Origin: Candidatus Micrarchaeota archaeon
Lineage (GTDB): Archaea; Micrarchaeota; Micrarchaeia; Anstonellales; Bilamarchaeaceae
NCBI GenBank assembly: GCA_041694885.1
Contig: JBGFRX010000016.1
Coordinates: 86 to 64,085, forward strand
Direction of reading: 5' to 3'
DNA: 64,000 bases
This document shows positions 4,813-56,513 of this stretch, piece by piece; the stretch's first letter is position 1, and every line of letters starts with the position of its first letter. The position numbers were made by a program, and so were the translations under genes. The notes under the pieces were generated by a model. It saw only the letters and a list, made by a program, of their open reading frames with translations, searched no databases and was not told where the DNA came from.

Positions 4813-4823
4813 GGTGAATATGC

Positions 4824-15487: not shown

Positions 15488-15526
15488 GGGCTTAATTATT
15501 TATACAAAGATTTCCAAATAATTTTT

Positions 15527-16435: not shown

Positions 16436-16447
16436 TTTGGTGCATGC

Positions 16448-17503
16448 ATGGACAGGGAAACACCGCAGAAAGCCGGCTATTACATGCCTGCGGAATGGGC
16501 AACGCACGAAGGCACCTGGCTCGCATGGCCCACGAATCCGGAAACGTTTCCTTCGCGCATAATCGCAAATGTGGAACGCGCATATTGCCTCGTGATATCT
16601 GCGCTGAGCCGAGGGGAAAGGGCCAAGGTGCTCGTGAACGATGCGGCTGCGGAAGAAAGGGTGCGCAGACTGCTTGCAGGACATGATTGTAAGGAAAAAA
16701 ACGTTCTTTTTTACCGGATAAAAAGCGCGGACGTATGGATAAGGGATTACGGGCCCACGTTTCTGCTCAACAGGAAAACAGGCAAAAAGGCGACGGTGAA
16801 ATGGAAGTACAACGCTTACGGAGGCAAATATGAGGACCTGCTTTACGATGATATTACAGGAAGAAAAGTGGCTGAGGCGAGCAGAGTCATGATTTTTGAG
16901 CCGGGAATGGTGCTGGAAGGCGGCTCGATAGATGTGGACGGAAAAGGAATGCTTATCACAACTGAGCAGTGCCTGCTGAACACGAATCGGAATCCGTCCA
17001 TGGATAGGGCGCAGATAGAGGAATACTTGTGCGAATATACTGGCGTTTCCAGAATAATCTGGCTCAAATCAGGGATTGAAGGCGATGATACGGACGGCCA
17101 TGTGGACGATTTTGCGCGATTTGCTGCAAACGGAACGGTTTTATGCGCATCCGGAAGCGAGGCTGGTGAGAAAGACGATGCCGTGCTGAAAAGGAATTTC
17201 GAAATTCTGAAAAACGAAACAGATGCAGAAGGGACGGAATTGGAGGTCGTAAAGCTGCCAATGCCCAAGCCGCTTGTTGATAGAGCGGAGAACAGGCAGC
17301 TTCCAGCGAGCTATGCCAATTTCTACGTGGGCAACAAGGTCGTGCTGCTACCGGTATTCGGGGACGCAAATGATTCGGAGGCAATACGGATAATGGGAAA
17401 TTCTTTTCCTGGAAGAGATATAGTCCCAATAATGGCGCGTGAGCTCGTATTCGGCTATGGCGGGATACATTGTATTACTCAGCAAGAACCACAGTCGGAT
17501 TGA
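16448..17503 (+). CDS. aguA: Agmatine deiminase
   Basis: MPAEWATHEGTWLAWP N-terminus, GGGIHCITQQ C-terminus (PAD-like family). Confidence 0.9.
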   Translation: MDRETPQKAGYYMPAEWATHEGTWLAWPTNPETFPSRIIANVERAYCLVISALSRGERAKVLVNDAAAEERVRRLLAGHDCKEKNVLFYRIKSADVWIRDYGPTFLLNRKTGKKATVKWKYNAYGGKYEDLLYDDITGRKVAEASRVMIFEPGMVLEGGSIDVDGKGMLITTEQCLLNTNRNPSMDRAQIEEYLCEYTGVSRIIWLKSGIEGDDTDGHVDDFARFAANGTVLCASGSEAGEKDDAVLKRNFEILKNETDAEGTELEVVKLPMPKPLVDRAENRQLPASYANFYVGNKVVLLPVFGDANDSEAIRIMGNSFPGRDIVPIMARELVFGYGGIHCITQQEPQSD

Positions 17504-20866: not shown

Positions 20867-21724
20867 TTACTTTTTTGCCTGCTCGCCTTTTGCAACTGCG
20901 GAAAATCCTGCCCAGGCGAGTCCCCCTATCAAAGCGAGCGCGCCGTAAATCATAAGCAGATGGACAATCACGCCCTTCATCCATTCGTTTACGAAGTTTA
21001 TGGAATCTGAAATGAAGATATCCACAATGGGCCTTTGCTGCTCAGGGAGCTGGGAGAGCATCTGCTCGAGTTGGGGGCTGCCCATTACCATAGAGCTTAG
21101 TAAAGAAGGGAGCGTTAGCCACACGAGCGCAAGGATTATTACTGTTCCAAGTGCGTTCATGAATGTGTGGAAGGCGATGGTGCGCAGCCAGGGCATGATT
21201 GCTCCTTCGCGTAAATAATATATAATTGCAGAAAACGCATAGAAGACGAGGAATAGTATAAGGAAAATTGGGAGATAGGTGGATGTGTAAGGATTCACGT
21301 AGTCCGTTTTCAGGGCTGCGAATACCTCTGCACTCGCCTCATGGACCTTTTGCGATATGAACAGCTGTCTGAGCTCTGCAGCGCTTGCCGCCTTTGCTGC
21401 ATTCGTACAAAGCGAGTCGATATCCTTGTCGCTCAAAGGCAATTCCATTGGAAGGGTTATGTTTGTGTTTGCGCTGCTGCGTATGAAGCAGAGAAAGCGT
21501 ATGTTCTGGATGGAAATGTTGCCCAGCCTCTCTTCGCTGAGCTGGGGAAATGCAAGCCCCACAAGTTCGGCTATCTTGTCCGGATATTCCGCGTTCACCT
21601 TTTTCTCCAGATCCCCTATCTCGTAGGGCGCAAGCGCCATGGAAATGCTTATGAAAAAGGCGAGCGAAGAGAGCGCCAAAAAGCCCCACGCAAAAAATCC
21701 AAGAACGAGCCGCTTCAGGTCCAT
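20867..21724 (-). CDS. Hypothetical membrane protein
   Basis: 285 aa, several TM helices, no motif recognised. Confidence 0.45.
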   Translation of the reverse strand: MDLKRLVLGFFAWGFLALSSLAFFISISMALAPYEIGDLEKKVNAEYPDKIAELVGLAFPQLSEERLGNISIQNIRFLCFIRSSANTNITLPMELPLSDKDIDSLCTNAAKAASAAELRQLFISQKVHEASAEVFAALKTDYVNPYTSTYLPIFLILFLVFYAFSAIIYYLREGAIMPWLRTIAFHTFMNALGTVIILALVWLTLPSLLSSMVMGSPQLEQMLSQLPEQQRPIVDIFISDSINFVNEWMKGVIVHLLMIYGALALIGGLAWAGFSAVAKGEQAKK

Positions 21725-23318: not shown

Positions 23319-24602
23319 TCAGAAAAACTCGTCCAGCCCCTTCTGCTTTTGGTTGCCGGTAATGTGTTTCGGATTTTGGGTTCCGCGTTTCGGGCCCTGC
23401 ATCTCGTTCTCGCCCAATATCAATTCCCCGAAAACTCCATCGTACCCTGGAACCCAGCGCACCTTTTCCGCATTCACCATCACTATCGCGTCGGCAACTT
23501 CTTTGCTTGCAGCCATGCGCACCTGCTCCTCCTTCGCCTCGTAAACCGCGAACTCGTTCCCGAAATACCTTATGAGCTTGCCGTATTCCTTGTGCACCAG
23601 ATTCGCCATTTCGGTTTTTCCCAGCGCTTTGGAAATCACTGTGCGAAGGGGCACTATATGCTTGAAGGGAACCACATTTTCGGGCATTTCCCCTAATTTG
23701 CGGTCAGCCAAATCCGCAACCCTGTGCATAACTCCAATGGTAAGTTCGCGCTTGCACACCGGGCATCTGTTGTTCAATTTCTTCGCTTCCCACGGATCGA
23801 GCAGCACGTTGCAAAGCCGATGCCCGTCGTAGTGGTATTTCCCTTCCTCTGGAAAGAATTCGTACGTCTTCACAAATCCCTTTCTCGTCTTTATCGCATC
23901 AATGATCGTGCCATACGTTGCTTCCTCCAAATCCAACACGTTTGCCTCCCTTCCCATCTTCTCCGGGCTGTGCGAATCGCTGTTCGAAACGAGGGTGTAT
24001 TTATCCAATCCGCTCAGCATCCAGCACATTGAAGGGTCCGCGGACAAACCCGTTTCCAATGCGTGAATATGCTTCTCCATCCCCCCATATGCCTCTTTCA
24101 AATCATCCACTCCGTTTTTCGAACCTAATAGCGAGAACCACGGAGTCCAGATGTGCGCAGGAATAACGAAATTAAGGGCGGAGATTTCCATAACTTCCTC
24201 AACGAGCTCGGCAGCTGAACATTGCCCAAAAATTGGCCTTCCGTCAGCAGCAAGGTTGCCCTTTTTCTTCAGTTTATCGTTTATCTGCGCAGCTACCTCG
24301 AAATCAGGAGCAAGAATCACATGGTGCATCTTCTTCAGTTCACCGTTTATGTGGAAAAGATTCGCCACTTCCACTGAAAGCAAAAATTTCACTCCGTTGA
24401 ATTCGTACAGTCCGGTGTCGTTGTCCTTATTCTCCAACCCCAGTTTCAATTCCCTGAACCATTCAGGATGGGTGAAGTCCCCGGTTGCGAGAATCTGCAC
24501 GCCCTTTATTTTTGCTCCTTCTGAAAGCCCCTGGAGATCCGAATTCTGGCTCGTTGCTCTCGCGTATTTGGAATGCAAATGTAAGTCGGCTATAACCTGC
24601 AT
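23319..24602 (-). CDS. PHP-domain nuclease of the EndoQ / TIGR00375 family, with zinc finger
   Basis: MQVIADLHLHSKYARATS PHP N-terminus, CPVCKR zinc-finger motif, ~425 aa as archaeal EndoQ. Confidence 0.55.
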   Translation of the reverse strand: MQVIADLHLHSKYARATSQNSDLQGLSEGAKIKGVQILATGDFTHPEWFRELKLGLENKDNDTGLYEFNGVKFLLSVEVANLFHINGELKKMHHVILAPDFEVAAQINDKLKKKGNLAADGRPIFGQCSAAELVEEVMEISALNFVIPAHIWTPWFSLLGSKNGVDDLKEAYGGMEKHIHALETGLSADPSMCWMLSGLDKYTLVSNSDSHSPEKMGREANVLDLEEATYGTIIDAIKTRKGFVKTYEFFPEEGKYHYDGHRLCNVLLDPWEAKKLNNRCPVCKRELTIGVMHRVADLADRKLGEMPENVVPFKHIVPLRTVISKALGKTEMANLVHKEYGKLIRYFGNEFAVYEAKEEQVRMAASKEVADAIVMVNAEKVRWVPGYDGVFGELILGENEMQGPKRGTQNPKHITGNQKQKGLDEFF

Positions 24603-24747: not shown

Positions 24748-24999
24748 TCAGATGTTCTCGAGCGGAATGCCGGTATCCAGCGACTCTGAATCAGGGCTGT
24801 CCAGAATCCCGAAATCTGCTGCAGTTATGTTCGAAGTAACTCCTCTGGTTCCAGAAGTCCCGCCTGTTGCAGAGCCGGCATTGCCTCCTGATGAAGCAGT
24901 GCCTTCTGGCGCACTGCCTGGCCTGGCCACGCAGCCGAAGCCGAAAAGCAGCACTGCGAGAAGCGCAACCACTATCATCAATTTACGCATGCTAAGCAC
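24748..24999 (-). CDS. Small secreted/lipobox-like protein, G/S/T-rich
   Basis: Signal peptide MRKLMIVVALLAVLLFGFGC followed by low-complexity region; 8-nt overlap with upstream gene. Confidence 0.4.
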   Translation of the reverse strand: MLSMRKLMIVVALLAVLLFGFGCVARPGSAPEGTASSGGNAGSATGGTSGTRGVTSNITAADFGILDSPDSESLDTGIPLENI

Positions 25000-25912
25000 C
25001 TCTCATCTTTTTGAGAAGGTTCTTCATCTTCTCGTGCGCCTGCTTGAGCGCGCTCTTCACATACTCGAAGTCGCCTGGATTGTATACCCTTCCGATTTTC
25101 ACTTTCGATGAAGCATCGTCCAGCAGGGCGCTTATCTCAGTGACGTCCGACTGGTAGCCCTTGGATATTGCCTCATCGTCCGTCGCGTCCACTATCGCCT
25201 TCATTTTTGCGATCTGAAAACGCGCCCAGATATGAAGGTGCTCTTCCCTCAGCCCTTTCACCGTTTCCTGTATGGTGCTCGCATTCCCTTTAGCTTCCGC
25301 GTCCCTGAGTTCGTCAAGGTTTGCCTCTGCCTCGCCCATTATCTTGTCCATTTCAGAAGTGTCCACGCCTTTGGCCTTTAGTTTTGCAGTGGTGTTCTTC
25401 ATGCCGTTCACGCGCGTCTTGACCTCGTTCACTTGTTTCTTTGCGAAATCGAGCGCAACACTCTTGAGGCATTTGGCCCTATCCTGCCTTACCTGCACGA
25501 AATAGTTCTGCCCATCGCTTGCGCTGGATCTGTTTTTCCCTCCCTTCACTATTTCCTTTCTGACGCCTTTCAGGTAAAGTGTAGCGTCGCGCAGGTCGTT
25601 TCTGAGCTCGCCTTTCACAAAGTCATTGAAGCCCTGCCTGTCTCCTCTGTCCGAATAGCCCTTGAGTGTGCTGAGATCGCCCGCGAGTTTGTCCGCTAGT
25701 CCGCTGCTGCTCGTGTTCGTGTTGTTCTCCCCATATTGCACGAGCGAGATCACCGCATTCACTCTGCATTCTATAAGCCCATATTTCAGGTTGAGCACAT
25801 GCAGCTTGGTCGCGTTCGCAGTTGTTTCGTCCGCAAACACGCTTCCTGCCAGGAGTGCAAGCCCGAACACGGCCAAAATCCACCCCTTCATCCAATCACC
25901 CCAAATCATCAT
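24992..25912 (-). CDS. Secreted alpha-helical protein of unknown function
   Basis: N-terminal signal peptide WILAVFGLALLAGSVFA, 306 aa, K/E/D-rich helical. Confidence 0.45.
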   Translation of the reverse strand: MMIWGDWMKGWILAVFGLALLAGSVFADETTANATKLHVLNLKYGLIECRVNAVISLVQYGENNTNTSSSGLADKLAGDLSTLKGYSDRGDRQGFNDFVKGELRNDLRDATLYLKGVRKEIVKGGKNRSSASDGQNYFVQVRQDRAKCLKSVALDFAKKQVNEVKTRVNGMKNTTAKLKAKGVDTSEMDKIMGEAEANLDELRDAEAKGNASTIQETVKGLREEHLHIWARFQIAKMKAIVDATDDEAISKGYQSDVTEISALLDDASSKVKIGRVYNPGDFEYVKSALKQAHEKMKNLLKKMRGA

Positions 25913-26685: not shown

Positions 26686-27819
26686 GTGAAAATGCAAAGA
26701 AATGGAGAAAGTGGAAAAGGGGATGTAACCATGGTTACAATTGCAACATTGGGAAGCCATTCTGCTTTGGATGTGTGCGAAGGCGCAAAAGCAGAGGGTT
26801 TCAGGACTTTGGTGGTTGCGCAGGAGGGAAGGGAAAGGACCTATTCCCACCATTACAAAACGCGCAGGCAGGGGAAAAAAGAAACCGGGGTTGTGGATGA
26901 GGTGCTTGTGCTCGAGCGCTTCAGGTACATCCTCACCCCGGAGAACGTAAAAATCATGAAAAAAAAGGGCTGCGTCTTCATCCCGAACAGGAGCTTCTCC
27001 GTCTATGTTGGAAATGATAAGATCGAGAAAAAATTCCCTGTCCCGGTATTCGGGAACCGCTTTCTCCTCAAGGCAGAGGAGCGCGGGGAAAGGAGGAACC
27101 AGTATTTCCTATTGGAAAAGGCAGGAATACGCACTCCGAAGCAGTTGGCGCACCCTAATGCGATACACACGCCCTGCATAGTGAAGGTGTCTGAAGCGCG
27201 CAGGACCTATGAACGCGCATTTTTCATCGCCTCTTCTTTTGAGGAATACACGAAGAAAAGCGATGACCTTATAGGAAGAGGCGTGATTACGCGCGAAGGC
27301 CTCTCCAAAGCGGTAATCGAGGAATTTGTGGTAGGGGCGCAGTTCAATTTCAATTTCTTCTATTCTCCGCTCAGCGAGCGGCTCGAACTTCTTGGAATAG
27401 ATATGAGGAGGCAGACCAACCTGGACGGTTTATTGAGGATGCCTGCTGATGCGCAGGCGGAGGCGCTCAAGCACGTGCGGCCCACTACGATAGAGGTCGG
27501 GCACGTTGCCTGCACTCTTCGGGAGTCGCTGCTCGAAAAAGTATTCGAGGCAGGGGAGAGATTGGTGCAGGTGTGCAGGGAGGAATACAAGCCGGGCATC
27601 ATAGGTCCCTTTGCCTTGCAGTGCGCAATCGCGGAAGAGGAGACTGGCGAGGAGCTCGTATGCTTCGACGTCTCCTTCCGTATACCCGGCTCGCCCGGAA
27701 CGAGGTTCACTCCTTATTCATCTTATTTGTTTGGGAAGAACATTTCGTTCGGAAGACGCATAGCGATGGAGATAAAGGAGGCGGTTAAGAGGAAAATGCT
27801 GGGAGAAGTCACTACATGA
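26686..27819 (+). CDS. purP: 5-formaminoimidazole-4-carboxamide ribonucleotide synthetase (PurP, ATP-grasp)
   Basis: IATLGSHSALDV...GAKAEGF N-terminus, strong similarity to archaeal PurP over whole length. Confidence 0.8.
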   Translation: MKMQRNGESGKGDVTMVTIATLGSHSALDVCEGAKAEGFRTLVVAQEGRERTYSHHYKTRRQGKKETGVVDEVLVLERFRYILTPENVKIMKKKGCVFIPNRSFSVYVGNDKIEKKFPVPVFGNRFLLKAEERGERRNQYFLLEKAGIRTPKQLAHPNAIHTPCIVKVSEARRTYERAFFIASSFEEYTKKSDDLIGRGVITREGLSKAVIEEFVVGAQFNFNFFYSPLSERLELLGIDMRRQTNLDGLLRMPADAQAEALKHVRPTTIEVGHVACTLRESLLEKVFEAGERLVQVCREEYKPGIIGPFALQCAIAEEETGEELVCFDVSFRIPGSPGTRFTPYSSYLFGKNISFGRRIAMEIKEAVKRKMLGEVTT

Positions 27820-28004: not shown

Positions 28005-29048
28005 ATGATAGAGAAATCCAAAATAGACGCGATAATTTCGGAATACAGGAAGCCCTCCATAGCCACCATTTGCTCCCATTCCTCATTGCAGATTTTCCAC
28101 GGCGCGAGACAGGAAGGCTTGAAGACTATAGGGATATGCCTGCGCGGAAGGGAAAAAATCTATGAAGTGTTCCCCCTTGCGAAGCCGGACGAATTCGTAT
28201 TCGTGAATTCATATTCTGAAATTCCTGAATCCGAATTGGTTGCGCGGGATGCTATTCTGATTCCGCACGGCTCGTTCGTAGAGTACACCGGGGAAAAAAT
28301 TGACGACTTAGCTGTTCCTGTTTTGGGAAACCGCGCCTCCCTAGTGTGGGAGCGCTCCCGCGAAAAACTCTTTGACTGGATATACAAGGCAGGGCTGAAA
28401 ACCCCAAAGGTGTTCCTTGACCCGAGAACGATAGACCGCCCGGCAATAGTGAAATTCCCCGGAGCAAAAGGGGGGCAGGGATATCTGGTGGTGAATTCTT
28501 ACGAGGAATACAGGCAGAAGGTTGGCGAGAAAAAAGCGATGGTGCAGGAATTCCTGACAGGAATAAGGGCATATCCGCATTATTTCTACTCTCCTCTTAA
28601 CAAGAGGGGCTACCGGGTCTCAAGTGGAACAGTGGAGCTTTTGGGAGTGGACAGAAGAGTGGAGAGCAACGCGGACGAGATAGGAAGGGCGATTTTCGCA
28701 GGAGCGCATGCCAAAATGTCCTTTACTGTGGTTGCAAACGAACCCATGGTTTTGCGCGAATCGCTCCTGCCCGAATACATGGAAACAGGAAAGAAAGTTG
28801 TTGAAGCGGCGGACAAGCTTTTTGGAGGCATTCCCGGTCCGTTTTGCGTGGAGACGATAATCACGGACAATATGGAAATCTACGTATTCGAGATTTCGGC
28901 GCGCATAGTCGCAGGAACTAATATTTTCTCCGACTCATCTCCTTATTCGGTGTTCGTGTATAAAAAGCCGATGAGCATGGGAAGGCGCATTGCGCTGGAA
29001 ATAAGGAACGCTGTAAAAATGAAGAAATTGGATGAAATTGTTTATTGA
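28005..29048 (+). CDS. PurP paralog (FAICAR synthetase family)
   Basis: IATICSHSSLQIFHGARQEGL, FPGAKGGQGY, FEISARIVAGTN; second copy in tandem. Confidence 0.75.
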   Translation: MIEKSKIDAIISEYRKPSIATICSHSSLQIFHGARQEGLKTIGICLRGREKIYEVFPLAKPDEFVFVNSYSEIPESELVARDAILIPHGSFVEYTGEKIDDLAVPVLGNRASLVWERSREKLFDWIYKAGLKTPKVFLDPRTIDRPAIVKFPGAKGGQGYLVVNSYEEYRQKVGEKKAMVQEFLTGIRAYPHYFYSPLNKRGYRVSSGTVELLGVDRRVESNADEIGRAIFAGAHAKMSFTVVANEPMVLRESLLPEYMETGKKVVEAADKLFGGIPGPFCVETIITDNMEIYVFEISARIVAGTNIFSDSSPYSVFVYKKPMSMGRRIALEIRNAVKMKKLDEIVY

Positions 29049-29851
29049 AGCTCGATTTTAACTGCATCTCCGTCCTTTTTATTCAGCGCCTTCTTGAGGT
29101 TTACCGGTGAGATTATCTCCACGATTTCAGATGGATGGTGAGTTCGAAGCGGAACTACCAATGCGCACTTGTGTTTTTCCATTGCGCATGGATATGCATA
29201 CAAGTCGCCGAAAGTGCGCTCCCCTTTCCTGAAGCCTTTGATTATTACTGGCTCGGAATTTTTCAGGAAATGCGATTTTGCTGCTGCGCTTTCCTCGCTC
29301 AATTTCACGTTGAGCGTGCCTTCGTAGGCCTCAAAGCCCAGCTTTTCCCTTATCTGCTTTTTGTATTTTTGAAGAGAGAGGTAATATCTGCCTTCTCCGA
29401 GCCCGGAGACGATTGCTCCGTAAAGCTTCGGTGCCTTTTTTTCAAACGCATTTTTCAATTCTGCATAAAACGCGTACGCTTCTTCCGCCCCTTTTTTGGT
29501 AAGCGCTATGCCATCTTTTGTCTTTTCCACAAGCCCGAGCTGCTCCGATTTGGAAAGCCGCGCAGAGGCGTTCTGCTGGCTCATGCCAAGAATCGCGCCT
29601 ATTTCCGAAGTGGTTATTCGCACGTGCCGCACGTGCGCACCTTTCTTCACCAGAAGCAGAAGCACTTCATCCATACAGATATTTTGGTAAACATGGTTTA
29701 TAAAGAAGTCCGGGCATAATACGTTTACGTGATGACATGAACAACCTCTGTCAGCATTCGGAAGAATGCTGGATGATGAGGCTAACAGCGTCTGATGGCT
29801 TTTCTTTATATAACGAAAATCCAGGAAAAAAAGGAGCAAAGTCCAATACAA
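29042..29851 (-). CDS. ribK: CTP-dependent riboflavin kinase (archaeal RibK) with N-terminal wHTH
   Basis: GAIVSGLGEGRYYLSL...YEGTLNVKL...HHPSEIVEIISP closely matches MJ0056-type RibK; probable start near 29674 (MDEVLLLL). Confidence 0.8.
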   Translation of the reverse strand: MYWTLLLFFLDFRYIKKSHQTLLASSSSILPNADRGCSCHHVNVLCPDFFINHVYQNICMDEVLLLLVKKGAHVRHVRITTSEIGAILGMSQQNASARLSKSEQLGLVEKTKDGIALTKKGAEEAYAFYAELKNAFEKKAPKLYGAIVSGLGEGRYYLSLQKYKKQIREKLGFEAYEGTLNVKLSEESAAAKSHFLKNSEPVIIKGFRKGERTFGDLYAYPCAMEKHKCALVVPLRTHHPSEIVEIISPVNLKKALNKKDGDAVKIELQ

Positions 29852-29878
29852 TCTTGGCTTTTTCCTTGGGAAGAAGGA

Positions 29879-31069
29879 TTACCCAAGTGCAGAAGAGATC
29901 GAATTCTTGACCCCCTTTGAAAGGCGAAGGAGGTGGTTGAGGCCGAACATGAAGTTGAATTCCTTGTCGCTCTCGAGTTTTTTCGCTATGTAAACAGAAT
30001 CCATGAGCCCGATGGACGCGCTGAGATGGATATCCTGGTAGATAATTTCAGCTATCTGGTTTCTTAGCCGTTCCGCAACTGCGAGGGAGTTCTTTCCGAT
30101 AGAGTTGAAAAGAACTATCACGAACTCGTCGCCGTGGAGGCGAATTCCGAAGTCTGCATAGTCGGGGCGCGTAGGTGAAAGGTCAATGCATACGTTTCTT
30201 ATATGTCTTACAATGCGGTTTGCGGCCAAGCACAGCCCTGCATCGCCCGCATGATAGCCGTAGGTGTCGTTGATAAGTTTGAAATTGTCCAGGTCCATCA
30301 GGAGAACGGAAAACGTGTAGTCGCGGTTCAGCCAGTGCCTTATGCTCGGTATTATCTCATGCTCGAAAGCGGTGCTGTTGAGCAGAGAGGTAAGGGGGTC
30401 GAACCACCCTTCCATCATGGACCTGCATTTGCTTGCCGCGCTGGCTGCAAACTTGAGCAGGAACGGTATGTCGTCAGGCGCATGCTTATGGATGAATAGT
30501 CGCTTTCCGGCTTGCCCTTCCACGACAAAGGAACCGAGAAAATTGTTGCCGCTGTAGACAGGCATTGAAAGTAGGTCAAATTCCGCGGCTTGGTCCAAGC
30601 GCAGATGGGTAACATTTCTTGCAGGTGGCGAAAAAAGGTACGCATCTTTTCCGCTTATGAAAATGCCTTCAGAGCACTCATGACTCGGCACAAAGTCCAT
30701 TTTTGGCAGGTTTTTGCCCTCGTCTTGGTTTGAGTAGGAATAAAAAAGCTTTAACGGCGTACCGCGTATGTAAAGGGAAGTGCCTCTCGCGTTCCTGAAA
30801 CTTTCGTAAACGATTCTCGTGAAGTTCTTGCGCTTCCACGTATCTACAACAAGAGCATTGTCCATGGCCTCGCCACGCTCATAAAGTTCGGCTTTCTGCC
30901 CCTCTGACATTCTGAGAAAATTGCGTTTAAGGGTTTTCCTCTTTACCCTGACGCTTGGGCTGCCGGTTGCCGAGACCAGCGCGCAACACTTGTTTGCGCG
31001 GGCTGCGCTCAGCTCTGCGAGAGGCCTGTGCAGGAAGCATTCTACAGGTGCCATAAGCATATTATACAC
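29879..31069 (-). CDS. GAF-like sensor + GGDEF domain protein (diguanylate-cyclase family; A-site reads HGDEF)
   Basis: DPLTSLLNSTAFEHEI, LLMDLDNFKLINDTYGYHAGDAGL, RLHGDEFVIVL are the three GGDEF-domain signature blocks; possible start at 30910. Confidence 0.7.
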   Translation of the reverse strand: MYNMLMAPVECFLHRPLAELSAARANKCCALVSATGSPSVRVKRKTLKRNFLRMSEGQKAELYERGEAMDNALVVDTWKRKNFTRIVYESFRNARGTSLYIRGTPLKLFYSYSNQDEGKNLPKMDFVPSHECSEGIFISGKDAYLFSPPARNVTHLRLDQAAEFDLLSMPVYSGNNFLGSFVVEGQAGKRLFIHKHAPDDIPFLLKFAASAASKCRSMMEGWFDPLTSLLNSTAFEHEIIPSIRHWLNRDYTFSVLLMDLDNFKLINDTYGYHAGDAGLCLAANRIVRHIRNVCIDLSPTRPDYADFGIRLHGDEFVIVLFNSIGKNSLAVAERLRNQIAEIIYQDIHLSASIGLMDSVYIAKKLESDKEFNFMFGLNHLLRLSKGVKNSISSALG

Positions 31070-31154
31070 AGAAAGGTTTTAAATGCTGTGTGAAAATGTA
31101 AAATAACGAGTAGGTGGGTAAGACATTATAAAGCCATTTGCGGTTTACACCTTC

Positions 31155-31757
31155 ATGCTCAAAAACAGCGAATTCGGAAAGGAGGCGTCGCGGCTTCTTG
31201 GGAAGGTGTTCAAGAACATTCCGCTTCACCCCAACATAATAACGGTGAGCGCAGCGGTTTTCGCGTTCCTTGCGTACCTTGCATATGGATATGACGGATG
31301 GTATGCGTTCGGCCTTTTTGCTCTCGCGTTTTTCGTGGACGCGGTAGATGGCGCGGTTGCAAAGGCAAAGGGAATGCAGACAAGGAAAGGCGCGTTCCTG
31401 GACGGGATAACCGACCGTGTGGTGGAGTTTTTCATAATCCTTGCACTGCTGAAGGCGCCCATACCTTTCCTCCTCCTGGAAAAAACGCTCTGGCTGCTGC
31501 TCATCCTTTTCTTCGGGACAGGGATGACGAGTTTCGTGAAGGCATATGCGGAGCACACCGAGGTAATGCACCACGCAAGGACAGTGAAAATGCCCGGAAT
31601 GCTCGAACGGGCGGAAAGGGGGGCGTTGCTCATGCTCGCGTTCCTGCTCGTGCTCTTTCGGAGCGAATTTTCCGCAGCAGTGATCATGTTCACCGCAATA
31701 CTGTCCTTCCTCACATTCGTGGAACGACTTTTGGCAGTTATGGGATCCAAGGAATGA
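31155..31757 (+). CDS. CDP-alcohol phosphatidyltransferase family (archaetidylinositol-phosphate/serine synthase-like)
   Basis: DAVDGAVAKAKGMQTRKGAFLDGITDR = D-x2-DG-x2-AR...G-x3-D-x3-D motif; ~200 aa, TM rich. Confidence 0.75.
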   Translation: MLKNSEFGKEASRLLGKVFKNIPLHPNIITVSAAVFAFLAYLAYGYDGWYAFGLFALAFFVDAVDGAVAKAKGMQTRKGAFLDGITDRVVEFFIILALLKAPIPFLLLEKTLWLLLILFFGTGMTSFVKAYAEHTEVMHHARTVKMPGMLERAERGALLMLAFLLVLFRSEFSAAVIMFTAILSFLTFVERLLAVMGSKE

Positions 31758-31760
31758 ATC

Positions 31761-33311
31761 ATGGAAGATGAAACTGAACGCACTGCAGTGGCTGGCAAGA
31801 GCGCGAAAGGAGTGCTGTTGAATATCGCCGCAGTAGGAGTTAGTAAGGGAAGCGGCCTGCTTTTCTACATACTTCTACTCCGGGTCGTGACTCCTGATGA
31901 AGGAGGGATATATTTCCTTTATCTCGCTGTTGCCGGCATCATCGGCTTAATCGGCGCGTTCGGGATGACGGACTCGCTCGCGAGGTTCATACCTTTTTAC
32001 GAGGGCAGCGGAAGGAAGCACAAAGTAAAGCCGCTCATCTACACTGTTCTCGTCTCGTTCGCTCTCTTTTCCATAATTATGGCAATTGCGTTGACTGCCG
32101 GGACAGGGCTCCTTGCACAGTATTACAGTAAGGCACTCGCAGCAATAGTGCCGTTAATTATTGCAGGCGGCATCGTTCTCTCGCTCAATTCTTTATTGAT
32201 GTGCACCCTGCTCGGGCTGAAAAGGTTCGGGGAAAGCGCTTTCTATTCTGCCTCGCAGCCGGTGCTTAGGTTCGGCCTTGCGGCGCTATTTTTCTACTTT
32301 TTGGGAGGAGGGCTCGAACAGGCGATATACGCTACGGTGCTATCGGTACTCCTCGTAAATGCGGCGATGGCGCTCTCGCTCTTCCATCGCCTGCGCAGCT
32401 ATCCTGGGAAAATCGGACTACTTGCGCCCAAAGAAAGTCTGGAAATCGCCTATTATGGTGCAGCCGCAGGGTTCAACCAATTCTACTCATCCATAATGAG
32501 CTGGACAGATACTTTTGTGCTCACGCCCTATGTGGCAGCGTCGGTCGTGGGCGCATACAATGCTGTGCTCAACATAGCAAGGACGCTCATGCACAGTGTC
32601 TCCGGGCAGATATTCGTAATACTCAATTCCATGCTCTCGCACCTCCATGGGACGAAGTCAGGAATATTCGGGCCGCTCGCAGGCAATGCGGCACGTTGGA
32701 GTGTGTATATCACCCTCCCGATAGTAATAGGGGGGATATTCTTCGCGAAGGGGCTTACGGGATTGCTTTTCCCGGTTTATGCTGATCATTACTGGCTGCT
32801 ATACGCGTTTATTCCCGCGTTTTTCGCAGCGAGCATATCCTTTCCTGCAAAGGGCGCGCTTTCCGCAGTGGGCAGGAGCGATTTGCTGTTCAAGTCAACG
32901 CTGGCTGCACTCGTGCTCAACCTCGTACTCAATGTTCTGCTTGTTCCCAAATACGGAGTAGTTGGCGCGGCCTTCGCGACCTCACTCACCTACGTTTTGG
33001 GGGAAGCGCTCGCTGTCTTTTATGCGATCCGGCTCGCGAAATTCTCTTTCCATCCTCTTCTTGTGAAAACGCTCGTTCCTGCAGGAGTTATGGCTGCTGC
33101 GCTCGCGCTTTCCTACAATTACCTCTTCGATTTTTCTGCGCGCGGCTGGGCGCTCGAAATCATGGGAATGGGGCTCGCGTCCTTGCTTTCCGGGCTTATA
33201 TATGCAGCAGCGCTCGTGAAAACAGGGGGAATGAACAAGACGGACTATAAACTCGTGGAAAAAACAATTGCAAAGGTCTCGGCAACAATTGAATTCATTC
33301 CTCAAAAATAA
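31761..33311 (+). CDS. MOP-superfamily polysaccharide/oligosaccharide flippase (Wzx-like)
   Basis: 516 aa, about 14 TM helices, typical MATE-like flippase organisation. Confidence 0.65.
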   Translation: MEDETERTAVAGKSAKGVLLNIAAVGVSKGSGLLFYILLLRVVTPDEGGIYFLYLAVAGIIGLIGAFGMTDSLARFIPFYEGSGRKHKVKPLIYTVLVSFALFSIIMAIALTAGTGLLAQYYSKALAAIVPLIIAGGIVLSLNSLLMCTLLGLKRFGESAFYSASQPVLRFGLAALFFYFLGGGLEQAIYATVLSVLLVNAAMALSLFHRLRSYPGKIGLLAPKESLEIAYYGAAAGFNQFYSSIMSWTDTFVLTPYVAASVVGAYNAVLNIARTLMHSVSGQIFVILNSMLSHLHGTKSGIFGPLAGNAARWSVYITLPIVIGGIFFAKGLTGLLFPVYADHYWLLYAFIPAFFAASISFPAKGALSAVGRSDLLFKSTLAALVLNLVLNVLLVPKYGVVGAAFATSLTYVLGEALAVFYAIRLAKFSFHPLLVKTLVPAGVMAAALALSYNYLFDFSARGWALEIMGMGLASLLSGLIYAAALVKTGGMNKTDYKLVEKTIAKVSATIEFIPQK

Positions 33312-36584: not shown

Positions 36585-37988
36585 ATGATAAATGTCGAAA
36601 GTGGCGGCAAAACCGGAAACCCGGAACGCGAAACGTCCGGAAGAAGGCAGGAGACCGGTCTGGGCTGGCGCATAACAAAGGAAGGCGATTACATGATAGA
36701 CCTTCCCCCGCTCAGCAGAGACGAAGAGGCCGCGATAGCCGCAGCAGAGGAAAAATTCAGGTTGCTCGCAGGAGAAAAAAGGATTGATTCTGAAAGTGTG
36801 GGGCGCGAACTCGCGGAAACGATTGCGAAAAACGCTGAGACAGAAGGAGTGCTTCTCGATTCCGAGCAGAAGGCATACCTCGCAAAATATGCGAAAATGC
36901 ACATCTATGGCTTTGCGTTCCTTGACGAACTTATTGGGAAGGACGAGATAGAAGAGATAAGCGTGATAGGGGTAAAGAAGCCAGCATACGTTTTCGTGAG
37001 GAAGCAGGGATGGCAGAAGGTAAATGCTGTTTTCGAGGACGAGAAGACGCTCATGGACGTGATAAACAAGATGGCGAGAGGAATGGGGAGGAGGATAACC
37101 CTTCAGCAACCGCGCCTGGACGCGATGCTTCCGGACGGTTCGCGGCTCCATGCTTCGCTCCACCCGCTATCGCAGGGCGAGATAACGATAAGGAAATTCA
37201 GGTACCTTCCGTTCTCGCCGAAGGAGATAGTTGCACTTGGCACTGCAGATTACAGGGCGATGGCTTTCCTCTCCATGCTCATGCAGACAGACAATTCGGT
37301 GCTCATAGCTGGAAATACGGCAAGCGGAAAAACGACCACGCTCAACGCGCTTTTTGCATTTGTCCCGAAAAACGAGAGGGTGCTCATAACCGAGGAGACG
37401 CCTGAGATAAATGTTCCGCACGAGCACCAGGCGCGCCTTGTCGCGAACAGGGACATGGGGATAACGCTCAAGGACCTTGTTTACGATTCGCTGCGCATGC
37501 GCCCGGACAGGATGATAGTAGGCGAGGTGAGGAATAAGGAAGAAGTCGAAGCGCTCTTCGACGTGCTTCTTGGAGGACAGGCAAGGGGCGCGTACGCCAC
37601 GTTCCATGCGCAGAGCGCGGACGAAGCGCTGCTCCGGCTCGGAAAATTTGGAATACAGGAAACGGACATGTGCAGCATTGATGCGGTTGTTGTACAGAGG
37701 AGGATGCTCCTGTACGACGCGAAGAAAAAAGCCGCGAACGAAACCAGAAGGATAGTGGAGATTGCGGAAATCGCGGATAACGCGAAAACGAAAAAGATAT
37801 TTTTCCTCAAGGGAGGAAAATGGGCTTACGCGCCGGGCGTGCTGTGCGCCCGGCTCGCCGAGAGTTTCGGGCTGAGTGCAGGGGAATTCGCAAGGGAGAT
37901 GGCCCAGAGGGAGAAATGGCTCAGGAGTGCCAGTGCGGACTTCAATTCGTTTTTCGAGGACGCGCAGAAAAAACTCTACAATATGTAG
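36585..37988 (+). CDS. Type IV pilus/archaellum-type secretion ATPase (FlaI/PilB/VirB11 family)
   Basis: Walker A GNTASGKTTTLNAL, Asp box, RPDRMIVGEVR, His box. Confidence 0.8.
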   Translation: MINVESGGKTGNPERETSGRRQETGLGWRITKEGDYMIDLPPLSRDEEAAIAAAEEKFRLLAGEKRIDSESVGRELAETIAKNAETEGVLLDSEQKAYLAKYAKMHIYGFAFLDELIGKDEIEEISVIGVKKPAYVFVRKQGWQKVNAVFEDEKTLMDVINKMARGMGRRITLQQPRLDAMLPDGSRLHASLHPLSQGEITIRKFRYLPFSPKEIVALGTADYRAMAFLSMLMQTDNSVLIAGNTASGKTTTLNALFAFVPKNERVLITEETPEINVPHEHQARLVANRDMGITLKDLVYDSLRMRPDRMIVGEVRNKEEVEALFDVLLGGQARGAYATFHAQSADEALLRLGKFGIQETDMCSIDAVVVQRRMLLYDAKKKAANETRRIVEIAEIADNAKTKKIFFLKGGKWAYAPGVLCARLAESFGLSAGEFAREMAQREKWLRSASADFNSFFEDAQKKLYNM

Positions 37989-38065
37989 CTGCTGTGGTTT
38001 ATTTCGGGCGGAAAAAATTTGAAACTGTCGGTAGATTTTTAAGCAGTTACGCGGGCGAATAAAAC

Positions 38066-39700
38066 ATGGCAATCGCAAAAAACATTTTTTGGCTTTCGAC
38101 ATATTTTCCGGATTTGGGGATAAGGAGTGCCTCAGTTGGAAAATACTGCTCCAAAGCCGCAGGTAGAACATGCAACGAAGGCAAATACCTTTCCTTTTCC
38201 CTTTTTGCATCGCTGTTCGCTGGAATGATTGTTGCATGGGTTTCGGCATCTGCCTTTGCATCGGAAGAACTGCCGCTGCTCGCGCCGCTTGCCGGCTTCC
38301 TTGCCGCATTCGGGCTCGCCTTTTTGGTGCTGCTCCGGCTGCCTCTGCATATTGAAAGGGCGCGGACTGAGAGAATGGAGGCTGAGATGCCTGCACTGCT
38401 CAGGACGTTCGGAATGCTTCTGGACATGAGGGTGCCTTTTACTGATGCGCTCAGGGCAGCTGCGAAAGAAGGCGAGGCAGGGAAGGAATTCCTCAAGGTC
38501 GTGGAGGAGGCGGAGCGGGGGGCGAGCATACCCAAGGCGCTCGCGAAATTCGCGGAAGCGAGCGAAAGCGCGGTTGTGAAGAAATCCTCTGCCCAGCTCA
38601 TATCCGCCTACGAGCACGGCGCGCACGGAAGCGAGATAAGAAGGATTGCTGACGATCTGCTTTCCCTCCAGAGCTATCGCATGCGCGACTTCGTTTCCAA
38701 GAGCTCGTTCTTCGGGCTTTTGTTCGTGATTTTTGCAGCAGTTGTGCCAACCTTTTTCCTGGTGTTCGCGACTGCGGGAAAGTTCGCGCTCGATATTGAA
38801 ATAGGCGCAGGGGCGTTTGCATTTGTTTTCCTCGTTGTTTTTCCCATAGTGAATGCAGCGATACTGCTCGTTTCCGCCTCCTCGATGCCGCCGAGCATTT
38901 TCAGGTCTGAATGGAGGGGTGTGAATTTATGGGCGTTTGCCGCGCTTGCTGCGCTGCTCGCCGCAGTCATGCTCCTTGATCTGGAAGGAATCCAAAAGTT
39001 GGCCGCGCTTGCTGCGGTCTCGGCGCTTTCGTGGAGCTTTTTCCGCGGCGAGTATGCCGAAGAAAGCAGGGTCGAGAAAATAGAGGAGGCACTTCCTGAT
39101 GCGCTCCTCGGCGTTTCCGGACTGCCGAAAAACTATGGAATAGAAAAAATATTCGAGCGGCTCGCGCTTGCGAGGGATGCGCTCGGTGCCGAAGCAGGGA
39201 AAACCCTGCGCCAGCTGAGAGCAAATGTGAGTGCAGAGAAGGCGCTCGCCGACCTGTGGGAGCGCAACCGCTCGTTCATGTTCAGGCGCATGGGCGAACT
39301 GATGCTCAACTCCCATCTCGCAGGCGCGAACATTTCCGAGAAGATGCACGAAATGGCCGAGGACCTCCTTAAATTCGGCGAACTGAGAAGAGAGAGGGAG
39401 AACGCGCTCTCGATGCAGAAATACACTCTCATATTGGGCGCCTTCATAGTGCCGCTCATCCTCACTACTTCTCTTTCGCTCGCCTCGCAAATAACCGCGC
39501 TCATGGAGCAGAAGGGCAACGAGGAAGTGGTAGCGCTCGCTCCTGGCGTGATTTCAGCGTACGTGATAATCTACGCAGCGCTTTCAGCGCTCTACATCTC
39601 CCATTCCGAGGACAGAACTTCGCGCGTGGTCCCTTATTTCGTGGCGATGGCTCTCGCAGGTCTGGCGGGTTTTTATATCCTTTCACAGCAATTTTCCTGA
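38066..39700 (+). CDS. FlaJ/PilC/TadC-like polytopic platform protein (two T2SS-F-like repeats)
   Basis: 544 aa, two repeated helical-cytoplasmic plus TM triplets; immediately follows the ATPase. Confidence 0.65.
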   Translation: MAIAKNIFWLSTYFPDLGIRSASVGKYCSKAAGRTCNEGKYLSFSLFASLFAGMIVAWVSASAFASEELPLLAPLAGFLAAFGLAFLVLLRLPLHIERARTERMEAEMPALLRTFGMLLDMRVPFTDALRAAAKEGEAGKEFLKVVEEAERGASIPKALAKFAEASESAVVKKSSAQLISAYEHGAHGSEIRRIADDLLSLQSYRMRDFVSKSSFFGLLFVIFAAVVPTFFLVFATAGKFALDIEIGAGAFAFVFLVVFPIVNAAILLVSASSMPPSIFRSEWRGVNLWAFAALAALLAAVMLLDLEGIQKLAALAAVSALSWSFFRGEYAEESRVEKIEEALPDALLGVSGLPKNYGIEKIFERLALARDALGAEAGKTLRQLRANVSAEKALADLWERNRSFMFRRMGELMLNSHLAGANISEKMHEMAEDLLKFGELRRERENALSMQKYTLILGAFIVPLILTTSLSLASQITALMEQKGNEEVVALAPGVISAYVIIYAALSALYISHSEDRTSRVVPYFVAMALAGLAGFYILSQQFS

Positions 39701-40227: not shown

Positions 40228-40777
40228 AACTAGGAGGAAGGTGCTGCATATATGCAGCGGAGTGGTGTTCCTGCTCTTTCTCCTCAGCTTTGGAAGGAGC
40301 AAATTCGTCATGCTTCTGGTCGCGCTCCTGCTCGGCGGCCTGCTCACGATAAACCTCCTCATGATGGGATGGAAATTCCCGCTCACGGAATGGTTCATAC
40401 GCAATTTCGAGCGGCCGAAGGTGAGGTTCCCGGGCTATGCGACAGCATGGTACGTTTCAGGGCTGCTCATCGCGGCCACGGTGCTGCACAACGAAGGGGA
40501 AATAGCCGCGGTGATATGCGCGCTCGCGTTTGGGGACGGCCTTTCGGGTGTTTTTGGGGAAAGGGGAAAAACAAAGCTTCCCTGGAACACAGGCAGGGAA
40601 AAGACGCTCGAGGGGACGATGGCATTCGCGTTCGGGACTCTCACCGCGCTTCCTTTTGTTGGGTGGATTGCGGTTCCGTTCGCGCTTGCAGCAGCGGTTT
40701 TCGAGTCCTTGCCCCTCGGGATAGACGACAACTTTTCAGTGCCTATTTTCGGGACGGTTTTCTTCTATGTTTTTTGA
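40199..40777 (+). CDS. CTP-dependent polyprenol/dolichol kinase-like membrane protein (Sec59/VTE5/CdsA superfamily)
   Basis: RKVLHI motif and GDGLSGVFGERGKTKLPWNTGREKTLEG C-terminal signature. Confidence 0.5.
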   Translation: MLLGIGLASETRRKVLHICSGVVFLLFLLSFGRSKFVMLLVALLLGGLLTINLLMMGWKFPLTEWFIRNFERPKVRFPGYATAWYVSGLLIAATVLHNEGEIAAVICALAFGDGLSGVFGERGKTKLPWNTGREKTLEGTMAFAFGTLTALPFVGWIAVPFALAAAVFESLPLGIDDNFSVPIFGTVFFYVF

Positions 40778-40798
40778 AAAAAATATTGCCAAGGGGGA

Positions 40799-40950
40799 AA
40801 TTCGAATTCCCGGCCTCCAGATTTCCCAGGAGAAATGGAGCGCTGAACGCGCATTTTTTGTCATCGCTTCGCGAAAAGCTCATAACTCACAAATCCAAAA
40901 TTTATGAGTCTGGCGCTCTAGCCGACTGCCCACCTCGCGAACCGTTCGCG
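40799..40950 (+). promoter_or_regulatory. AT-rich intergenic region with perfect palindromes AATTCGAATT (40799-40808) and CGCGAACCGTTCGCG (40936-40950)
   Basis: Seen in sequence; upstream of the sigma-r4-like gene. Confidence 0.35.
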
Positions 40951-41042
40951 CAGGTTCTGAGCTACCTTGGCACAAGAGAACTTATGGTTATCGCTAAAAA
41001 CTGTTTTAAAGCAACGCAGCAAAAGATTTTAAATACCATTGT

Positions 41043-41066
41043 AGTATATAACCTACAACATGTAGG
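41043..41066 (+). promoter_or_regulatory. TATA box GTATATAAC plus hairpin/operator-like palindrome CCTACA-aca-TGTAGG, ending 9 nt before the ATG at 41075
   Basis: Spacing fits a leaderless archaeal promoter; palindrome sits over the predicted TSS. Confidence 0.4.
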
Positions 41067-41074
41067 TAATTTTT

Positions 41075-42190
41075 ATGGGAAACGCACATTTGAGCGAAGA
41101 TAATGGGTTTGCTATGCAACAGAGGCGATGGAAGCCTCGTGAAAGATATCTGGAAAAGGTTTTTAACAGAAAAAAAGCAGGCGACTGGGCTGCAGTGAAG
41201 GAACTTTTTGACAGGTACCAGTACATTGCGCCAAAAACAGTGGATAAACGCATAGAACTAAGAGAATGCAAAGTGCGGAAAATAGAGGATGCTCTTCATA
41301 GCAACAATGGCGACCATGGTAATGTGGATGAAGCAACGCAGACCAAATTGCTGCTCGAATATGCTAAGAAAAAAGCGTTTGTTGCACGCCATCTGCAATG
41401 CAGGGATTACATGGTTGAGGTTGTACGCGACAAACTTATGGAAAAATTGATGGATGCGAATCCAAAAAATCCGTCATATATATCTTCACATGCGTACAAG
41501 TGGGCAGAAACCGAAACAAAGCGTTTGATGAAGCTTCTGGAAAAGGAACTGCGCATTGGGAGCGTACTTTCGGCCCGGCAAATGGAAACGCCGATACGTA
41601 CGCCATTCGATTGCGTCTTGGAAACCGAATGCTCGAAAATGATAAAGTTCATGCTGAAATGGCTAACGCCAAAGGAAGACAGAGTAATACGCATGAGATT
41701 TGGGATTGACTATCCGTACAAAACACTTGGGGAAATAGCAGGGCATTTGTCAGTGACGCCGGAACGAGTAAGGCAGATCGAAACAATGGCCCTGATAAAA
41801 TTGAGGCGCTCTCCCCGTTCAAAGACATTGGGGCACTTTGTCGCTCCGCAGCCAGGCCGCAGCTGGCTCACAGAAGATGCGCCGGAAAACGAGGAGCAAA
41901 AAAAGGCCTGCAAAAAAGTGGATGAAATCATCCTGAAAACCTGCAGAAACGATGCGAAGGTAGTGCGGTGCAGGATGATCGAAGGGCTGCACTGGAGCGA
42001 GATAGAGAAGAAAACGGGCATTAGCGGCTACTGTGCCAGGCAAATGGTTCACGCGCATCTCGGAACAATTGAAAAATTACTTGTCGGACTTGCTGCGCAG
42101 CTTGGCACAAGCGGTTCAGTGGCTGCTGCATTGGTAAAAGGGGCGCGCATTGACGAGTACGTAAGGCGCATTGCAGAAGCGGCGAGGTAA
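41075..42190 (+). CDS. Regulator with two sigma-70 region-4-like HTH domains (first copy canonical r4.2), atypical composition
   Basis: LTPKEDRVIRMRFGIDYPYKTLGEIAGHLSVTPERVRQIETMALIKLRR matches sigma-70 region 4; second HTH ...VVRCRMIEGLHWSEIEKKTGISGYCARQMVHAHLGTIEKLL is ECF/LuxR-like; possible degenerate region-2-like NPSYISSHAYKW; codon usage AAA/GAA-biased unlike neighbours. Confidence 0.55.
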   Translation: MGNAHLSEDNGFAMQQRRWKPRERYLEKVFNRKKAGDWAAVKELFDRYQYIAPKTVDKRIELRECKVRKIEDALHSNNGDHGNVDEATQTKLLLEYAKKKAFVARHLQCRDYMVEVVRDKLMEKLMDANPKNPSYISSHAYKWAETETKRLMKLLEKELRIGSVLSARQMETPIRTPFDCVLETECSKMIKFMLKWLTPKEDRVIRMRFGIDYPYKTLGEIAGHLSVTPERVRQIETMALIKLRRSPRSKTLGHFVAPQPGRSWLTEDAPENEEQKKACKKVDEIILKTCRNDAKVVRCRMIEGLHWSEIEKKTGISGYCARQMVHAHLGTIEKLLVGLAAQLGTSGSVAAALVKGARIDEYVRRIAEAAR

Positions 42191-53283: not shown

Positions 53284-53363
53284 TTCCTCGTGCCCTTTGC
53301 CTTGTATTTTTCCTCGAGCGGAACCTTTGCCATCATCGCACCTTCAACATCATTGCATTTCAC
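53175..53363 (-). CDS. rps14: Ribosomal protein S14 (uS14, zinc-binding type)
   Basis: CRICGNARAVIRKYNLHVCRRCFRE; probable start near 53336. Confidence 0.85.
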   Translation of the reverse strand: MKCNDVEGAMMAKVPLEEKYKAKGTRKCRICGNARAVIRKYNLHVCRRCFREVAEHINFRKY

Positions 53364-56414: not shown

Positions 56415-56513
56415 CGCCCCGGGGAAGACTCGAACTTCCGGCCTACTGATGTCTGTTTCCAGCTTTGAACCAGATTTAACAGTCAGTCGCTCTACCAACT
56501 GAGCTACCGAGGC
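56415..56513 (-). tRNA. tRNA-Asn(GUU) with a 26-nt intron at the canonical 37/38 position
   Basis: Reverse complement: GCCTCGG TA GCTC AGTTGGTA GAGC G ACTGA CTGTTA[26-nt intron]A TCAGT AGGCC GGAAG TTCGAGT CTTCC CCGGGGC G; full cloverleaf pairs including G-U at 4:69. Confidence 0.8.

Follow-up and report, generated by a model that had tools for sequence, protein, structure and literature searches.

Fusion of a GAF sensor to a GGDEF domain, the catalytic domain of diguanylate cyclases (DGCs), is a common bacterial architecture. For archaea, Galperin et al. (2018) described a REC-inactivated-GGDEF ("WspR-like") protein in two Ca. Micrarchaeum acidiphilum genomes and also listed the GGDEF protein CAJ37382 of Methanocella arvoryzae, leaving open whether archaeal GGDEF genes are genuine or contamination (PMC5847659), and Römling (2022) wrote that archaeal GGDEF proteins "need to be confirmed" (PMC10086821). 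This literature, in which archaeal GGDEF proteins are nearly absent or unverified, agrees with the premise of a first-pass annotation of the DNA analyzed here that cyclic di-GMP (c-di-GMP) signalling is essentially absent from archaea, and our literature search found no paper describing the GAF-like-GGDEF family treated below. Here we characterize one protein of this family, encoded on a 64,000-nucleotide stretch of contig JBGFRX010000016.1 (assembly GCA_041694885.1, Candidatus Micrarchaeota archaeon; the whole stretch is hereafter the window). Taken together, sequence, structural models and analogy with bacterial enzymes suggest that it is probably a cytoplasmic GAF-like ligand sensor controlling a DGC, encoded by a native, long-resident gene of a DPANN archaeon.

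The gene occupies window positions 29879..31069 on the minus strand as a single open reading frame (ORF) of 396 aa counted from a GTG at 31069, with its stop codon at 29879-29881. The ATG at 31054 (residue 6) is the likely true start, giving 391 rather than 396 aa, because NCBI annotates the same start (protein P0001) and a TATA-like box lies ~27 nt upstream. P0001 (391 aa, beginning at the residue-6 ATG) is identical to the window protein and is found on two contigs. All three GGDEF signature blocks named in the first-pass annotation (DPLTSLLNSTAF, LLMDLDNFKLINDTYGYHAGDAGL and RLHGDEFVIVL) are present in the translation. The domain assignment is confirmed far beyond chance by two hidden Markov models (HMMs), each scoring above its cutoff: Pfam GGDEF (PF00990) matches residues 223-354 with E=5e-21 (75.5 bits, cutoff 23.8), and NCBIfam TIGR00254 reaches 76.4 bits (cutoff 37.4). 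Furthermore, 43 distinct PDB sequences match the window protein by sequence, nearly all of them DGCs or GGDEF-domain proteins.

The predicted fold agrees with this assignment. AlphaFold was run with a 14-sequence alignment of the protein family described below, and all structure models here rest on shallow alignments (12-14 sequences); the full-length model reached a mean pLDDT (predicted local distance difference test) of 85.5 and a pTM (predicted template modelling score) of 0.84, with the GGDEF part mostly at pLDDT >90. In the model, residues 1-19 are disordered and are followed by a helix (22-35), a short strand (42-45), a GAF-like part made of helices (56-90) and an antiparallel sheet (94-185), a long helix (201-219) and the GGDEF domain (223-396). 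Foldseek matches of the full model (E ~1e-13) are to sensor-helix-GGDEF cyclases, the matched structures being a phytochrome-DGC (5llx), a PAS-GGDEF-EAL protein (5xgb), the GAF-GGDEF protein Dcsbis (4zmu) and a LOV-DGC (8c05), and isolated GGDEF domains superpose with a root-mean-square deviation of 2.7-3.5 A over ~180 columns (TMt 0.7-0.83). The features of the gene, in window coordinates, are:

29879..31069, minus strand: ORF fusing a GAF-like sensor to a GGDEF domain (ORF calling, HMM, NCBI protein P0001)
30500..30904, minus strand: divergent GAF-like sensor, ~residues 56-190, with two N-terminal helices and then an antiparallel beta-sheet (AlphaFold, Foldseek)
30413..30469, minus strand: long linker helix between sensor and GGDEF domain, residues 201-219 (model secondary structure)
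29882..30403, minus strand: GGDEF domain, residues 223-396, with a C-terminal helix and strand specific to the family (HMM, PDB sequence matches, fold)
30242..30295, minus strand: metal-/GTP-binding block DLDNFKLINDTYGYHAGD, with D259, K264, N267 and D276, and Y272 instead of a near-invariant His (family alignment)
30122..30136, minus strand: A-site HGDEF, H312-F316, with His (codon CAC) for the first Gly (translation)
30152..30163, minus strand: I-site position, reading DYAD (alignments to DosC and the family)
29903..29917, minus strand: C-terminal KGVKN, with K385 and K388 (family alignment)

The N-terminal half is supported as GAF-like at the level of the predicted fold only. When residues 40-222 were modelled separately (pLDDT 85.6), all of the top 50 Foldseek PDB matches were GAF domains (probability ~1.0, TM ~0.5, best E=1.3e-4), including phytochrome GAF, fRMsr, PtsP and Nlh1. 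By sequence, the GAF HMMs (PF01590 and PF13185) gave no match to the window protein at E<=0.01 and were faint in only two or three of its orthologs (E=0.08-0.13), and a PDB profile search of the N-terminal region returned a cyanobacteriochrome-derived GAF protein as a weak match (E=1.3). The GAF-like sensor of the first-pass annotation thus holds as a predicted fold and fails as a significant HMM match. A REC-like N-terminal domain, as in the Micrarchaeum acidiphilum protein, was also considered and was rejected because every structural match is GAF. The window protein contains no hydrophobic segment (Kyte-Doolittle(19) maximum 0.97), so it should be soluble and cytoplasmic.

To place the active site, the window protein was compared with the catalytic residues of PleD as given in PMC6629876, which cites Wassmann et al. 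2007. The seven reference positions correspond as follows:

PleD D327, window D259: kept
PleD K332, window K264: kept
PleD N335, window N267: kept
PleD D344, window D276: kept; guanine-specifying
PleD E370, window D314: Asp, as in GGDEF, with E315 next to it
PleD K442, window K385: kept; invariant across the family
PleD R446, window K388: Lys, in a loop one residue shorter (KGVKN where the canonical form is AKxxGRN)

Six of the seven positions are retained, the equivalent of R446 being Lys, and the equivalents of D327, K332, N335, D344 and E370, which serve the metal, the transition state and guanine, are present with correct spacing. The two remaining positions, K442 and R446, are the phosphate-binding pair of the C-terminal helix. 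The A-site reads HGDEF and not the canonical GG(D/E)EF, as first noticed from the sequence, and a second assembly reads the same at 30122-30136. A sequencing error behind His312 was rejected, as its CAC codon is two base changes from any Gly codon and both assemblies agree. At the allosteric I-site, five residues ahead of the A-site, alignments to DosC and to the family place DYAD where DosC has RSSD, so the RxxD whose presence the first-pass annotation left to be checked is missing in canonical form; within the family it occurs only in P0129 and P0134 (RRDD). Because the RxxD I-site is absent, product feedback inhibition is not expected.

The family itself was collected by scanning 1.84 billion representative proteins exhaustively with HMMER, most members having been missed by word-index protein searches. 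It comprises 13 non-identical relatives of the window protein (P0121-P0130, P0132, P0134 and P0142; E 1e-43 to 1e-17), which are 25-42% identical to it with the N-terminal region also matching, and which are mostly 380-440 aa long, the shorter ones being P0142 and, without most of the N-terminal region, P0121 and P0126. By sequence, the gene belongs to a small archaeal clade encoding soluble proteins of ~390 aa, in which a long helix joins a divergent GAF-like, putatively ligand-binding domain to a GGDEF domain. In a neighbour-joining tree of the GGDEF domain alone (Kimura-type distance, 163 columns; a crude tree whose bacterial comparators were only the best hits to the query), 13 members are monophyletic in 97 of 100 bootstraps, with P0142 outside. 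When sequences were ranked by the GGDEF domain only, 11 of the 13 other members stood above every bacterial sequence among the library's best matches, and the nearest bacterial GGDEF domains are ~31-43% identical over the domain core. P0142, a GAF-like-GGEEF protein, is encoded at positions 3937-4980 (plus strand) of locus L022 (GCA_964565725.1), on a contig of 22-29% GC next to the archaeal split rpoB and rpoH; its position outside the main clade could reflect a second archaeal lineage or a long-branch effect.

Across the alignment the A-site consensus is RWGGDEF. GG(D/E)EF is found in 12 of the 14 aligned members, the departures being HGDEF in the window protein and QGDEF in P0124, where a one-residue insertion and an Asn at the guanine-binding Asp were also observed. 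All 14 members have Asn267, and 13 of them also have the guanine-specifying Asp (D276). As its sister sequences in the tree, P0121 and P0122, are canonical, HGDEF together with H272Y and D378N is terminal to this lineage, and HGDEF in particular is a change peculiar to the window genome and not a family trait. P0124 departs at both the first Gly and the guanine-binding Asp, so that erosion of the active site recurs in the clade.

The overwhelming majority of GGDEF proteins come from bacteria, contamination was suspected in earlier archaeal cases (PMC5847659), and the present sequence comes from a metagenome-assembled contig; all three points would favour contamination from a bacterium, chimeric assembly or very recent horizontal transfer as the source of the gene. 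The genomic evidence effectively refutes such an origin. The gene lies mid-contig with core archaeal genes on either side for tens of kb: the window carries the exosome genes Rrp4, Rrp41 and Rrp42, SMC, GGGP and DGGGP synthases, a ribosomal-protein/SecY cluster, a CTP-dependent riboflavin kinase with a helix-turn-helix (HTH) domain and two PurP genes. The glycyl-tRNA synthetase (GlyRS) of the window has relatives at 72-88% identity; among named relatives, the closest (59-65%) belong with few exceptions to Candidatus Micrarchaeota, Anstonellales or Bilamarchaeaceae, so that the host is, by this marker, most likely a DPANN archaeon of the Micrarchaeota. A 4125-bp contig of a second assembly (GCA_041695005.1) matches window positions 28386-32510 at 100% identity, gene junctions included. 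Composition is equally native, with GC 0.505 and GC3 (GC at third codon positions) 0.602 for the GGDEF gene against window means of 0.501 and 0.596, and a codon-usage deviation that ranks 38th of 48 window genes, i.e., among the most typical.

Furthermore, the local gene order (a polysaccharide-biosynthesis gene, Polysacc_synt; a CDP-alcohol transferase gene; the divergent GGDEF gene; HTH-riboflavin kinase, RibK) is common to four other assemblies from different samples (loci L017, L019, L020 and L023), whose GGDEF orthologs are only 30-35% identical to the window protein. In L020, collinearity with the window extends to RNase HII, GAPDH, UPP synthase and the T2SSE ATPase, a block of ~10 kb, and wherever the contigs of family members could be read the context was archaeal, with orthologs on archaeal contigs 30-42% identical to the window protein. 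The neighbouring features are:

31055..31154, no strand: 100-bp divergent intergenic region common to the GGDEF and CDP-alcohol transferase genes (five-locus alignment)
31155..31757, plus strand: CDP-alcohol phosphatidyltransferase, archaetidylinositol-phosphate-synthase-like (HMM; syntenic in L017, L019, L020 and L023)
29042..29674, minus strand: winged-helix HTH plus CTP-dependent riboflavin kinase, 210 aa as called in L001 (HMM; syntenic in L019, L020 and L023)
31761..33311, plus strand: Wzx-like flippase (polysaccharide biosynthesis), a member of the conserved block (HMM; syntenic in L020, and in L019 by tblastn)

Within 31055-31154 and within the 81-101 bp counterparts at the four other loci, each of the two divergent genes has an AT-rich TATA-like box; these would serve as promoters, and the pattern suits the 391-aa gene model and an archaeal transcript with a short leader. 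The archaeal neighbours singled out in the first-pass annotation, the CTP-dependent RibK and the archaetidyl CDP-alcohol transferase, were confirmed by HMM together with the two PurP genes, and its argument from context against contamination is strengthened by the independent synteny, the native codon usage and the archaeal clade. Of the bacterial donor that it proposed to identify by phylogeny, no recent example is visible, and the members form an archaeal clade. A contig scan of species representatives with the window protein returned only bacterial GGDEF domains, Aquificaceae best, a ranking from which no donor can be named because it is biased by the INDTYGYH search pattern. A metagenome contig scan with the full family alignment likewise gave bacterial GGDEFs, with no family member among the matches listed. 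Since the best bacterial domains are only ~31-43% identical, the sequence comparison points to an old resident gene and not a fresh transfer.

In the adjoining genes, the riboflavin kinase (longest ORF 29042-29851, minus strand) carries an N-terminal winged-helix HTH (MarR/Crp-like) and is of the bifunctional regulator-kinase type; this longest ORF (269 aa, to 29851) over-extends the 210-aa gene called in other assemblies. Tandem PurP paralogs (DUF1246/DUF1297, FAICAR synthetase-type ATP-grasp) lie at 26686-27819 and 28005-29048, both on the plus strand. Functional coupling of the GGDEF gene to the riboflavin-kinase regulator or to the CDP-alcohol transferase was considered and set aside, finding no support beyond synteny; as the ~10 kb block is collinear with L020, the linkage of these neighbours may only reflect shared ancestry.

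By analogy with bacterial sensor-helix-GGDEF enzymes, a small ligand would bind the GAF-like domain and shift the linker helices of a homodimer, a movement that would bring two GTP-loaded GGDEF domains together or apart; their encounter would govern the condensation of two GTP into c-di-GMP, without I-site feedback. The analysis shows the identity of the GGDEF domain, the predicted fold, the residence in an archaeal chromosome, the synteny, the clade and the conservation of residues; dimer mechanism, ligand control, c-di-GMP as the product and any downstream target are inferred from there. The family as a whole, which keeps a canonical active site, probably has cyclase activity. For the HGDEF copy of the window we are less confident, and set the chance that it is active slightly below even. 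Given HGDEF, H272Y and D378N, this copy would be either a weakened but active cyclase or one moving toward a non-catalytic role.

Several observations weigh against a native, sensor-controlled DGC. A 2023 review describes DGCs as almost confined to bacteria and states that no archaeon has yielded a detection of c-di-GMP (PMC10249747). The Micrarchaeota assignment of the host comes from a single marker. In the GAF-like domain, conservation falls mostly on Gly, Pro and aromatic residues, so that no ligand can be proposed for it. No potential partner was found either, in a search limited to the window and the flanks of related loci: Pfam found no EAL, HD-GYP or PilZ among the ORFs of the 64 kb window, in line with the first-pass annotation; a six-frame motif scan found no MshEN or other c-di-GMP-receptor motif in the window; and no phosphodiesterase or c-di-GMP receptor appears among the Pfam domains precomputed for the L019, L020 and L023 flanks. 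At gathering thresholds, Rfam found no c-di-GMP riboswitch in the window. The GGDEF gene is moreover the fastest-evolving of its block, with ~33% identity between the window and L020 where its neighbours retain 53-80% (RibK 62, CDP-alcohol transferase 68, flippase 53, RNase HII 78, GAPDH 80, UPP synthase 78 and T2SSE 69%), which could mean relaxed constraint. The gene has been retained all the same, and across the family the invariant positions concentrate in the GGDEF domain and include all catalytic residues, a pattern expected of purifying selection that preserves catalysis while sensor and surface change rapidly. In a leave-one-out comparison the window protein departs at 4 of 36 family-conserved columns (typical members at 0-3), and three of these four departures, H272Y, G312H and D378N, fall in the GGDEF domain. 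Finally, the first Gly is intolerant of change in most cyclases, and its tolerance is enzyme-specific according to the authors who measured it in VCA0965, where adaptation to an Ala as first residue had already taken place (PMC3974145).

These last observations bear on whether the window copy is catalytically dead and plays a non-enzymatic part instead, sensing GTP or nucleotides or serving as scaffold or receptor in the manner of degenerate bacterial GGDEFs. We regard this as unlikely, if far from negligible. It would be favoured by the combination of HGDEF, H272Y, D378N and a Lys at the R446-equivalent Arg, by the recurrent degeneration seen in P0124, by the fast evolution of the gene, and by the precedent of the Ca. 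Micrarchaeum acidiphilum REC-GGDEF, called "inactivated" by Galperin et al. (PMC5847659). The metal-binding, base-binding and transition-state residues are, however, all intact; known degenerate-GGDEF receptors of c-di-GMP bind it through an RxxD I-site, which is absent here; a GTP-sensing GGDEF would lack a partner output domain; and the sisters P0121 and P0122 are canonical. HGDEF is also compatible with activity in at least one enzyme: when Hunter et al. changed the first residue of the AGDEF cyclase VCA0965 of V. cholerae to all other amino acids, Gly, His and Met were functional, and the HGDEF version raised cellular c-di-GMP ~3-fold (PMC3974145).

The missing partners bear on an active enzyme with a different product, such as 3',3'-cGAMP (Hypr-like), linear pppGpG or another cyclic oligonucleotide, working in a non-classical pathway. 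In favour of it, no genes for c-di-GMP turnover or reception were seen nearby, the family stands far apart from bacterial domains and possesses a C-terminal segment not shared with them, and GGDEF-fold enzymes with other products exist, Hypr GGDEF being an example cited in PMC10249747. Against this stand the conservation of D276 and Asn267 described above and a sequence in which nothing indicates another substrate, and we consider such a product very improbable. Work by Hallberg and co-workers from 2016 is said to have found Ser in Hypr enzymes in place of the guanine-specifying Asp.

Two matches in the scan for MshEN, PilZ and HD..GYP patterns were rejected, both lying in frames antisense to real genes. 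Separately, the window encodes a DHH/DHHA1 phosphoesterase at 6322-7323 (plus strand), whose relevance to the GGDEF gene is speculative; the DHH/DHHA1 family includes nanoRNases and hydrolases of cyclic dinucleotides or pGpG. The genes at 36585-39700 (plus strand), 5.5 kb from the GGDEF gene, encode archaeal type IV pilus-like machinery, namely a T2SSE ATPase and a T2SSF platform protein; they show no MshEN c-di-GMP-binding motif, and the T2SSE ATPase gene is collinear in L020. Both the phosphoesterase and the pilus-like machinery could in principle be relevant to the GGDEF gene.

Beyond the sensor-cyclase itself, we tentatively entertain a broader scenario, in which this Micrarchaeota lineage makes c-di-GMP through its vertically inherited family and both reads and degrades the signal with components unrelated to EAL, HD-GYP and PilZ. 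If true, Archaea would thereby have their first genuine case of c-di-GMP signalling, possibly for cell-surface or host-attachment functions; the gene shows persistent linkage to lipid head-group and polysaccharide-export genes, with the type IV pilus-like ATPase nearby. The genomic half of the matter is answered, at least one GGDEF family being native, old and equipped with an intact active site in a DPANN lineage, and the question whether any archaeon uses c-di-GMP becomes directly testable with concrete proteins, namely the canonical orthologs and the natural HGDEF variant. Activity in these proteins would open a search for archaeal c-di-GMP receptors and hydrolases and would provide a natural experiment on the permissible variation of the first GGDEF Gly.

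Several further features of the window were recorded. A 99-nt tRNA at 56415-56513 (minus strand; Rfam 61.4 bits), missed by ARAGORN in bacterial mode, is perhaps an intron-containing archaeal tRNA. The 371-aa ORF at 41075-42190 (plus strand) contains a Sigma70 region-4 HTH (E=1.3e-12), a bacterial-type sigma-factor domain on an archaeal chromosome, and the 283-aa ORF at 40252-41103 (plus strand), which has no Pfam match and the most atypical codon usage of the 48 genes (GC3 0.43; mean 0.60), could be foreign DNA or an ORF called in error. No Pfam family at E<=0.001 was found for eight further ORFs (246-427 aa), as is typical of DPANN dark matter (8630-9370, 12864-13964, 14729-15487, 15500-16684, 20867-21724, 23319-24602, 24992-25912 and 53196-53978).

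Among known systems, the Cas10 Palm/cyclase domain (GGDD) of type III CRISPR has a related RRM-like palm fold that cyclises nucleotides and is common in archaea. The window protein matches the GGDEF family proper instead, with base-binding residues that specify guanine, and the window contains no cas genes. The Micrarchaeum REC-GGDEF and Methanocella CAJ37382 share with the present family a GGDEF domain in archaeal assemblies and the same question of genuineness; by its description, the Micrarchaeum protein is set apart by a REC rather than a GAF-like sensor, and by the canonical active site of the family described here. VCA0965, with its natural AGDEF, resembles the window protein in having a first A-site residue other than Gly and is active; unlike the window protein, it sits in the membrane and has an RxxD, its N-terminus is unrelated, and its HGDEF form was made artificially from the Ala background. 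The closest likeness is to the bacterial sensor-helix-GGDEF DGCs (Dcsbis/PA2771 of P. aeruginosa, 4zmu; the Idiomarina phytochrome-DGC, 5llx; the LOV-DGC, 8c05), which have the same domain order (a sensor of the GAF/PAS class, then a long helix, then GGDEF) and share with the window protein the predicted GGDEF fold, the metal- and base-binding residues and, of the phosphate-binding pair, the Lys. The window protein differs from them in its archaeal host, in a GAF-like domain beyond the reach of GAF HMMs, in a 7-8 residue insertion before the GGDEF hairpin, in its lack of RxxD, in an AKxxGRN loop one residue shorter and in HGDEF. At the protein level it falls, as a divergent member, within the sensor-GGDEF class; its archaeal home is what is unusual.

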